A stretch of 64,000 nt of DNA from Escherichia coli (GCF_016026235.1 NZ_CP065613.1), one strand, 5' to 3'; positions 10,965 to 13,275 are shown, numbered from the stretch's first letter. Numbers and translations are program-made. Notes: generated by a model from the letters alone, not told the origin.

Positions 10965-13275
10965 GTTATTCTCTGCATTCAGAAAAAATAAAATCTGGGA
11001 TTTCAACGGCGGCATCCATCCACCGGAGATGAAAACCCAGTCCAACGGTACCCCCCTGCGCCAGGTACCCCTGGCGCAGCGTTTTGTTATTCCACTGAAA
11101 CAGCATATTGGCGCTGAAGGTGAGTTGTGCGTTAGCGTCGGCGATAAAGTATTGCGCGGCCAGCCGCTTACCCGTGGTCGCGGCAAAATGCTGCCTGTTC
11201 ACGCGCCCACCTCGGGTACCGTTACGGCTATTGCGCCCCACTCTACGGCTCATCCTTCAGCTTTAGCTGAATTAAGCGTGATTATTGATGCCGATGGTGA
11301 AGACTGCTGGATCCCACGAGACGGCTGGGCCGATTATCGCTCTCGCCGTCGCGAAGAGTTAATCGAGCGCATTCATCAGTTTGGTGTTGCCGGGCTGGGC
11401 GGTGCGGGATTCCCGACAGGCGTTAAATTGCAGGGCGGCGGAGATAAGATTGAGACGTTGATTATCAACGCTGCTGAGTGCGAGCCGTACATTACCGCCG
11501 ATGACCGTTTAATGCAGGATTGCGCGGCTCAGGTCGTAGAGGGTATTCGCATTCTTGCGCATATTCTGCAGCCACGCGAAATTCTTATCGGCATTGAAGA
11601 TAACAAACCGCAGGCGATTTCCATGCTGCGCGCGGTGCTGGCGGACTCTCACGATATTTCTCTACGGGTGATTCCAACCAAATATCCTTCTGGCGGTGCT
11701 AAACAATTAACCTACATTCTGACCGGGAAGCAGGTTCCACATGGCGGGCGTTCATCCGATATCGGCGTATTAATGCAAAACGTCGGCACTGCTTATGCAG
11801 TGAAACGTGCCGTTATTGATGGCGAGCCGATTACCGAGCGTGTCGTAACCCTGACTGGCGAAGCAATCGCTCGCCCGGGCAACGTCTGGGCACGGCTGGG
11901 GACGCCAGTGCGTCATTTATTGAATGACGCCGGCTTCTGCCCCTCTGCCGATCAAATGGTGATTATGGGCGGCCCGCTAATGGGCTTTACCTTGCCATGG
12001 CTGGATGTCCCGGTCGTAAAGATTACCAACTGTCTGTTGGCTCCCTCTGCCAATGAACTTGGCGAACCACAGGAAGAACAAAGCTGCATCCGGTGTAGCG
12101 CCTGTGCTGACGCCTGCCCTGCGGATCTTTTGCCGCAACAGTTGTACTGGTTCAGCAAAGGTCAGCAACACGATAAAGCTACCACGCATAACATTGCCGA
12201 CTGCATTGAATGTGGGGCTTGCGCGTGGGTTTGCCCGAGCAATATTCCCCTAGTGCAATATTTCCGTCAGGAAAAAGCTGAAATTGCGGCTATTCGTCAG
12301 GAAGAAAAGCGCGCCGCAGAAGCCAAAGCGCGTTTCGAAGCGCGCCAGGCTCGTCTGGAGCGCGAAAAAGCGGCTCGCCTTGAACGACATAAGAGCGCAG
12401 CCGTTCAACCTGCAGCCAAAGATAAAGATGCGATTGCTGCCGCTCTGGCGCGGGTGAAAGAGAAACAGGCCCAGGCTACACAGCCTATTGTGATTAAAGC
12501 GGGCGAACGCCCGGATAACAGTGCAATTATTGCAGTACGGGAAGCCCGTAAAGCGCAAGCCAGAGCGAAACAGGCAGAACTGCAGCAAACTAACGACGCA
12601 GCAACCGTTACTGATCCACGTAAAACTGCCGTTGAAGCCGCTATTGCCCGTGCCAAAGCACGCAAGCTGGAACAGCAACAGGCTAATGCGGAACCAGAAG
12701 AACAGGTCGATCCGCGCAAAGCCGCCGTCGAAGCCGCTATTGCCCGTGCCAAAGCACGCAAGCTGGAACAGCAACAAGCTAATGCGGAACCAGAACAACA
12801 GGTCGATCCGCGCAAAGCCGCCGTCGAAGCAGCTATCGCCCGCGCCAAAGCGCGCAAGCTGGAACAGCAACAGGCTAACGCAGAGCCAGAACAACAGGTC
12901 GATCCGCGCAAAGCCGCCGTCGAAGCCGCTATTGCCCGTGCCAAAGCGCGCAAGCTGGAACAGCAACAGGCTAATGCGGAACCAGAAGAACAGGTCGATC
13001 CGCGCAAAGCCGCCGTCGAAGCCGCTATTACCCGTGCCAAAGCGCGCAAACTGGAACAGCAACAGGCTAATGCGGAGCCAGAAGAACAGGTTGATCCGCG
13101 CAAAGCTGCCGTCGAAGCGGCTATTGCACGCGCCAAAGCACGCAAGCTGGAACAGCAACAGGCTAATGCAGAACCAGAAGAACAGGTTGATCCGCGCAAA
13201 GCGGCAGTTGCCGCGGCTATTGCCCGCGTTCAGGCCAAAAAAGCCGTCCAGCAAAAGGTTGTAAACGAGGACTAA
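10957..13275 (+). CDS. rsxC: Rsx/Rnf complex subunit C (NADH-binding, 4Fe-4S), with expanded C-terminal repeat region
   Basis: 772 aa; RnfC core with two CxxCxxCxxxCP motifs followed by 32-aa tandem repeats ([32 protein letters not shown]); 8-bp overlap with rsxB. Confidence 0.9.
12613..13212 (+). repeat. In-frame 96-bp tandem repeat array inside rsxC (6 full units plus a partial seventh)
   Basis: GATCCGCGCAAAGCCGCCGTCGAAGCCGCTATTGCCCG... units beginning at 12613, 12709, 12805, 12901, 12997, 13093, 13189 with only a few substitutions between units. Confidence 0.9.

Follow-up and report, generated by a model that had tools for sequence, protein, structure and literature searches.

An in-frame minisatellite towards the 3' end of Escherichia coli rsxC, very probably the VNTR locus ms11, repeats a conserved peptide

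Introduction

Tandem repetition within RsxC has been described in Erwinia amylovora, where a 40-aa repeat of this protein was put forward and is used as a VNTR marker for typing (PMC10587187, Sci Rep 2023; PMC11834498). Its copy number ranges from 0 to 5 depending on the strain, and it was presented by its authors as a new discovery in that genus (PMC10587187).

In E. coli and Shigella, the ms11 passages of two MLVA papers (PMC8215070, PMC4553163) describe a VNTR locus with a 96-bp unit, give the sequences of its primers and credit them to Gorgé et al. (2008, J Clin Microbiol 46:1026). Passages on ms11 in this literature report amplicons of 718-958 bp for 80 E. coli isolates, corresponding to alleles of about 4.5-7 units with a Simpson's index of 0.68, and the alleles 4, 5 and 6 for S. 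sonnei. In the ms11 passages of PMC8215070 and PMC4553163 the locus is treated as an anonymous size marker: rsxC is not named there, and neither an encoded peptide, nor chimeric junction units, nor 99-bp variants of the unit are mentioned. Our search of the literature for rsxC, rnfC or ydgN together with VNTR or MLVA returned just the papers on Erwinia.

The best described C-terminal extension of this protein family is that of Azotobacter vinelandii RnfC (8ahx chain C), which continues past the ferredoxin domain as a helix rich in Ala, Lys, Arg and Glu. According to a 2025 review (PMC12174285), this helix is in contact with RnfB and RnfH, and what it does is not understood; the passages of the review on RnfC and its C-terminus make no mention of a repeat tail. 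Nothing specific was found in a literature search for a disordered or extended C-terminus of RnfC or RsxC.

Here we analyze a stretch of 64,000 nucleotides of E. coli DNA (hereafter the window), in which a preliminary description, made from the sequence alone, had reported a 96-bp repeat array within rsxC.

Results

The rsxC gene of the window and its repeat array

The rsxC gene (Table 1) encodes, as judged by family models, the NADH-side subunit of the Rsx/Rnf complex. The 772-aa protein scored 868.6 bits with the NCBIfam RsxC equivalog model NF003454 (cutoff 345) and 594.6 bits with the rnfC model TIGR01945 (cutoff 245.95), and it matched the A. vinelandii RnfC chain 8ahx_C at 5e-121. The RnfC domain set is complete, comprising RnfC_N, the FMN/NADH-binding Complex1_51K, SLBB and two [4Fe-4S] motifs (Fer4), and all these Pfam domains end by approximately residue 452. 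The open reading frames of rsxB, rsxC, rsxD and rsxG adjoin in the window, and the order rsxA-B-C-D-G-E-nth is the same in K-12 and in a contig carrying the identical 772-aa protein. Pfam provided no family over the tail of RsxC, including its non-repeated part (residues 441-552), and the model NF003454 reaches only into the first repeat unit.

Table 1. Features of the rsxC locus, in coordinates of the window
Feature	Position	Strand	Description	Basis
rsxC CDS	10957-13275	+	772 codons plus stop	ORF, family models, Pfam, operon order
Long predicted helix	12235-12399	+	residues 427-481; 10-residue blocks of residues 441-480 with mean pLDDT 77-90	AF2
Non-repeated part of the tail	12277-12612	+	residues 441-552; rich in Ala, Arg, Lys and Glu; two degenerate motif-like segments; predicted helices	
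96-bp array	12613-13226	+	six full units plus a 38-bp partial unit	TRF, unit listing, translation
Starts of full units	12613, 12709, 12805, 12901, 12997, 13093	+	partial unit from 13189	
Terminal degenerate motif and C-terminus	13189-13275	+	runs to the stop codon; ending conserved across Enterobacteriaceae	
ms11 forward primer site, GAAACAGGCCCAGGCTACAC	12462-12481	+	exact, unique in the window	
ms11 reverse primer site, CTGGCGCTGGTTATGGGTAT	13304-13323	-	exact, unique; inside the start of rsxD	
Spurious antisense ORF	12250-13380	-	376 aa; arises from the stop-free repeat; pN/pS of the units about 2	
Spurious antisense ORF, mirror frame of rsxC	12405-13199	-	264 aa; pN/pS 0.09	
Spurious ORF, +1 frame	12521-13264	+	247 aa; pN/pS 2.4	

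A single array was detected in rsxC by TRF, with a period of 96, 6.4 copies, 92% matches, no indels and a score of 997; the only other tandem repeat in the whole 64-kb window was a tRNA gene pair. These data and the translation agree with the preliminary description, which had proposed six 96-bp units plus a partial seventh, in frame within the C-terminal region of RsxC, and had quoted the 32-aa repeat peptide correctly. The span it gave, 12613-13212, holds at its start and has to be extended at its end, as the array stops at 13226. Likewise, the units called near-perfect deserve that name as protein, only three amino-acid positions varying among the six full units, whereas as DNA they are 86-97% identical (3-13 of 96 nucleotides differ in pairwise comparisons). 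The translation of each full unit starts with DPRK(A/T)AVEAAI(A/T) and ends with (E/Q)QV, and the whole protein contains seven copies of the motif.

In K-12 MG1655 rsxC (b1629, NC_000913.3) measures 2223 bp and encodes 740 aa, and its array is 518 bp long vs 614 bp in the window. The gap is exactly 96 bp; K-12 thus carries one unit fewer, as the preliminary description had supposed. The 772-aa protein was found unchanged in 12 E. coli contigs at NCBI, two of them larger than 1 Mb, so that the array withstands the doubt that its units might collapse on re-assembly. The one contig that was fetched (GCA_021505815.1) matches the window at every base of rsxC, and an rsxC of 2319 bp is also present in finished chromosomes of O157:H7, O55:H7 and O145:H28.

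Both published ms11 primers matched the window with 0 mismatches, where 0 chance matches were expected, and they bracket the array. The in-silico amplicon, 12462-13323, measures 862 bp and contains 6.4 units. Taken together, the primers, the 96-bp unit and an amplicon and unit number falling inside the published ranges of 718-958 bp and 4.5-7 make it very probable that this minisatellite, which lies in coding sequence towards the 3' end of rsxC, and the VNTR locus ms11 are one and the same.

Copy number among strains

The supposition that the array changes its copy number among strains was borne out by flank-only queries against complete E. coli genomes. These queries replaced a whole-gene megablast, in which the repeats gave many overlapping pieces and the units could not be counted; array length was taken as the match span of a query made of both flanks joined, with the array removed. 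From a database of about 5424-5426 complete genomes, two evenly spread samples yielded 116 distinct genomes with 3-7 full units. In this sample, which carries the bias of the database (for example, many records of O157:H7 and ST131), five full units (517-519 or 524 bp), the class of K-12, were present in 76 genomes (66%) and four (422 or 425 bp) in 23 (20%), followed by seven (716 bp) in 9 (8%), six (614 bp), the class of the window, in 7 (6%) and three (326 bp) in 1 (1%). The extremes seen were 1 and 11 full units, the former in PapRG-04-4, whose array of 134 bp lies in an rsxC annotated as intact.

E. coli RsxC entries in the protein database range from 645 to 937 aa, that is, from 3 to 12 motifs. 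Lengths that depart from the 32-aa steps (709, 742 and 806 aa) are due to 99-bp units, in which an additional CAA codon produces QQQQ. The 12 public alleles that were fetched, with 1 to 7 full units of 96 or 99 bp, are all annotated as an intact CDS.

The alleles are associated with lineage. Of the 60 genomes whose flanks lie nearest to those of the window, 51 were labelled O157 or O55:H7, and the array measured 614 bp in all of these except O55:H7 DEC5E. In every K-12 strain and laboratory derivative sampled, the array measured 518 bp. Within the two samples, six full units were observed in O157:H7 and its relatives, and seven or four units in the group with the greatest divergence from the window, to which ST131 and avian-pathogenic strains belong. 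Changes in unit number are therefore rare, and clones keep their allele.

How the number of units changes

As each unit carries its own synonymous variants, the units can be labelled and followed from one strain to another. With this labelling the window reads 1, 2, 3, 4, 5, 6, partial, and FDAARGOS_943, the genome with the closest flanks (99.8%), reads 1, 2, 12, 5, 6, partial. Unit 12 joins the 5' variants of unit 3 of the window (positions 27, 33 and 39) to the 3' sequence of unit 4; FDAARGOS_943 thus shows one in-register loss of 96 bp, with its junction between unit positions 40 and 74. Chimeric units were also found in O55:H7 DEC5E, in which a unit composed of parts of 5 and 6 is seen by comparison with DEC5D, and in PapRG-04-4, whose sole unit combines the 5' part of a window-type unit 1 with the 3' part of unit 6, a loss of five units. 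AVS0578 corresponds to AH20J067 with three adjacent units removed. The chimeric junctions, seen in three pairs of related strains, directly show that the number of units changes by in-register misalignment between units, a process of which they are the signature.

Because the 96-bp units are 86-97% identical, sister or replicating strands could pair out of register by whole units; unequal homologous exchange or slippage at the fork would then lead to the loss or gain of whole units, leaving a chimeric unit at the junction. Since 96 is a multiple of three, all products would be in frame. The preliminary description had invoked slippage or recombination, and the chimeric junction units bear out that copy number is altered in this manner; their sequence appears compatible with both RecA-dependent exchange and replication slippage.

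A phase-variable contingency locus was also considered and was rejected, since changes in unit number keep the reading frame and no high instability was seen within clones, as judged by the O157 and O55:H7 genomes among the 60 nearest and by the sampled K-12 derivatives.

Selection, conservation and predicted structure of the repeated peptide

Among the six full units of the window pS was 0.29 and pN 0.016 (pN/pS 0.06), and 15 of the 18 variable sites were at third codon positions. Because the pS of the units far exceeds that between the window and K-12 over the non-repeated 1656 bp of rsxC (0.043), the units are old paralogues, kept nearly identical as protein, and not recent copies.

Each unit consists of a motif, its first 18 residues, followed by an acidic linker that is specific to the genus. 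In close homologues from Escherichia, Salmonella, Citrobacter, Klebsiella, Raoultella, Kosakonia, Cronobacter and Leclercia the motif shows no or hardly any variation, whereas the linker differs between these genera in both sequence and length, giving unit periods of 28-37 aa. All the Enterobacteriaceae RsxC homologues examined contained arrays. The resemblance extends to E. amylovora, where the repeat occupies the same gene and the same place in the C-terminal tail and the first 16 residues of its unit are identical to those of the E. coli unit; it differs in being 40 aa (120 bp) long with an Ala/Pro-rich linker, as compared with 32 aa (96 bp) and a Gln/Glu-rich linker in E. coli.

When 1.84 billion representative proteins were searched exhaustively by HMMER, a query of two and a half units gave only 91 matches, the long ones carrying arrays of related motifs with much longer linkers. 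Such related arrays are found in RnfC proteins of far greater divergence. RnfC_N and Complex1_51K were present in 10 of the 10 long matches scanned, and the other long sequences that were fetched showed the RnfC cysteine motifs by eye, three oddities aside. Barring these three, no motif array outside RnfC was found among the long matches examined. One of the oddities was a translation with a frameshift, another a fused fragment, and the third an unrelated protein with repeats.

The two halves of the unit have opposite net charges, +4 in the motif and -4 in the linker. The motif is predicted to form a basic helix of about 20 residues in each unit, followed by a 14-residue acidic linker of Gln, Glu and Pro. 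The AF2 model of the whole protein, built on a shallow alignment of 29 sequences, is poor (mean pLDDT 48.7); it places one helix of about 18-23 residues in each unit, with coils of about 10-14 residues between them, at low pLDDT. The model hints that the array may amount to a series of identical helices strung along flexible linkers, extending beyond the catalytic domains of the cytoplasmic NADH-binding subunit.

The three solved RnfC chains (8ahx_C, 7zc6_C and 9eri_C; 435-496 aa) all lack the repeat, their alignment with the protein of the window ending by residue 498, and a search of PDB sequences with the repeat alone gave matches at chance level (E values of at least 0.34). The helix modelled at residues 427-481, which the poor model predicts better than any other stretch, probably corresponds to the C-terminal helix, over 50 residues long, of A. 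vinelandii RnfC, which aligns with RsxC of the window up to residue 498; the E. coli repeat starts about 70 residues later.

Discussion

As a typing marker the array is usable, as had been suggested in the preliminary description, but it offers nothing new, since ms11 has been part of MLVA panels since 2008 and its primers match the locus. Our results bear on how this marker is to be employed. The allele is slow to change and tracks lineages, so it is suited to coarse typing and not to the resolution of outbreaks. Unit counts should come from long reads or PCR, because short-read assemblies often break at this locus and yield partial RsxC entries, and the 99-bp units would lead to fractional alleles when amplicons are sized on gels.

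The conservation of the repeated peptide suggests that the helical motif would have a function as a module, most likely that of docking or tethering some partner in a multivalent manner, while its copy number seems to be loosely constrained and the length variants nearly neutral lineage markers. Many copies are not essential, because the natural strain PapRG-04-4 has an intact annotated rsxC with one full unit. The conservation could instead reflect a structural or expression constraint on a low-complexity helix.

A different proposal, which sees in the array a locus for adaptive tuning or contingency where frequent gain and loss of units fit Rsx activity, and with it the resetting of the SoxR oxidative-stress switch, to the niche, could appeal to the selection acting on the repeated peptide, to a non-frameshift deletion in rsxC, at a position not stated, in an olaquindox-selected E. 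coli line, and to the association of alleles with lineage (six units in O157:H7-related strains, seven or four in the diverged group). We consider it improbable, however. That same association is also what neutral inheritance predicts, and with a 96-bp unit every allele is in frame, leaving no room for on/off switching. Moreover, the locus is stable across the O157:H7 strains of the 60 nearest genomes and across K-12 laboratory derivatives that are decades old, and the synonymous divergence between units (pS 0.29) implies a slow turnover.

We give almost no credence to the idea that the repeat hosts a second gene, overlapping rsxC on the other strand or in another frame, and that selection preserves that gene. 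Long spurious reading frames on both strands, generated by the repeat, had already been noted, and stop-free frames of 376, 264 and 247 aa do overlap the array; the 264-aa antisense frame even has a pN/pS (0.09) almost as low as that of the rsxC frame. This frame, however, shares its wobble positions with rsxC, and its low pN/pS results from that sharing while selection acts on rsxC, so that it lends a gene there no independent support. The other frames have pN/pS values of about 2 or more, and the open frames owe their existence solely to the repetition of one stop-free unit. The rsxC frame, in turn, is continuous with the conserved catalytic domain, and its motif is kept across genera while the length of the linker changes.

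Finally, that the additional unit is an assembly or sequencing artefact, a mis-resolved 614-bp repeat, is effectively refuted. In favour of an artefact, short-read assemblies often break in the array, numerous RsxC entries of 559-629 aa marked as partial falling in the same 90% cluster, and in a few complete genomes the array is off by one (517 or 519 bp), apparently through sequencing error. Against it stand the identical protein on 12 contigs, with the fetched one identical over the whole gene, the six-unit length in dozens of finished O157:H7, O55:H7 and O145 chromosomes, and the synonymous variant set of each unit, which would not arise from an assembly that had collapsed or expanded the array.

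Returning to the reading of the motif as a functional module, it is conceivable, though we hold it only tentatively and think it rather doubtful, that the motif is a docking motif specific to RnfC, which brings a defined partner to the NADH side of the complex and whose copy number, 1-12 in E. coli, sets the valency; variant forms of it are repeated in divergent RnfC tails. If this were true, the VNTR would be the outward sign of a multivalent tail with a function, one not dealt with by present Rnf structures or by the 2025 review, and the candidate partners would be an electron acceptor such as SoxR, a ferredoxin, a flavodoxin, another Rsx subunit or nucleic acid. The repeated peptide ranks with the most conserved portions of the tail, is subject to strong purifying selection and was found just in RnfC; defining its role could explain how the Rsx complex of E. 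coli meets its substrates.

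Unit length and copy number in the rsxC array

Although the basic unit of the array is 96 bp, units of 99 bp are present among those of the E. coli strains AH20J067, NE88 and AVS0578. The longer unit carries one additional CAA codon, converting QQQ to QQQQ, and is a small trinucleotide slip nested within the 96-bp unit. RsxC proteins of 709, 742 or 806 aa are explained by this extra codon, as are the fractional alleles seen on gels.

In E. coli PapRG-04-4, isolated from baboon stool in the Gambia, the array is down to one full and one partial unit (134 bp), within an rsxC gene of 1839 bp that is annotated as intact; its sole full unit is chimeric, combining window-type unit 1 with unit 6. 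A published table (PMC7696260) lists a non-frameshift deletion in rsxC in an olaquindox-selected line of E. coli ATCC25922; as the deletion is listed there without its position, it may or may not represent the loss of a unit from the array.

The RsxC tail and distant homologues

Residue 527 of the window protein (12535-12537), within the segment IIAVREARK, is Val. Ala is nearly invariant at this position in an alignment of 29 Enterobacteriaceae RsxC sequences. This part of the tail is not repeated, and the change to Val is rare.

Arrays of a related motif, D/E-x-K-K-A-A-V/[12 protein letters not shown], were found in the tails of distant RnfC representatives (P0135-P0214), whose divergence far exceeds that of the homologues from Enterobacteriaceae. 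The linkers of these arrays are Ser/Thr/Asp/Pro-rich and much longer, with unit periods of up to ~70 aa and proteins of up to 971 aa.

Other features of the window

Features of the window outside the rsxC reading frame
Feature	Window position	Strand	Evidence
264-aa antisense ORF	12405-13199	-	pN/pS 0.09 among units
STnc550, enterobacterial sRNA family	42882-43272	-	full-length match, 394.5 bits vs gathering score 48
Two adjoining tRNA-Val(GAC) genes	51864-52021	+	81-bp tandem repeat per TRF
HPnc0260 "antisense RNA" family match	51983-52145	-	Rfam, 112 bits

The HPnc0260 match overlaps the second tRNA-Val(GAC) gene on the opposite strand, and it may be mere tRNA-like sequence. The pN/pS of the antisense ORF falls almost to the value of the true rsxC frame. 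This illustrates the mirror-frame effect clearly, and gene callers that rely on signs of selection could be misled by it.

Reliability of copy-number estimates

In the protein cluster of the window RsxC, many NCBI entries of 559-629 aa are flagged as "partial", with lengths consistent with contig ends inside the array; short-read assemblies therefore appear to fail routinely at this site, and they are not to be trusted for the copy number of the rsxC array.
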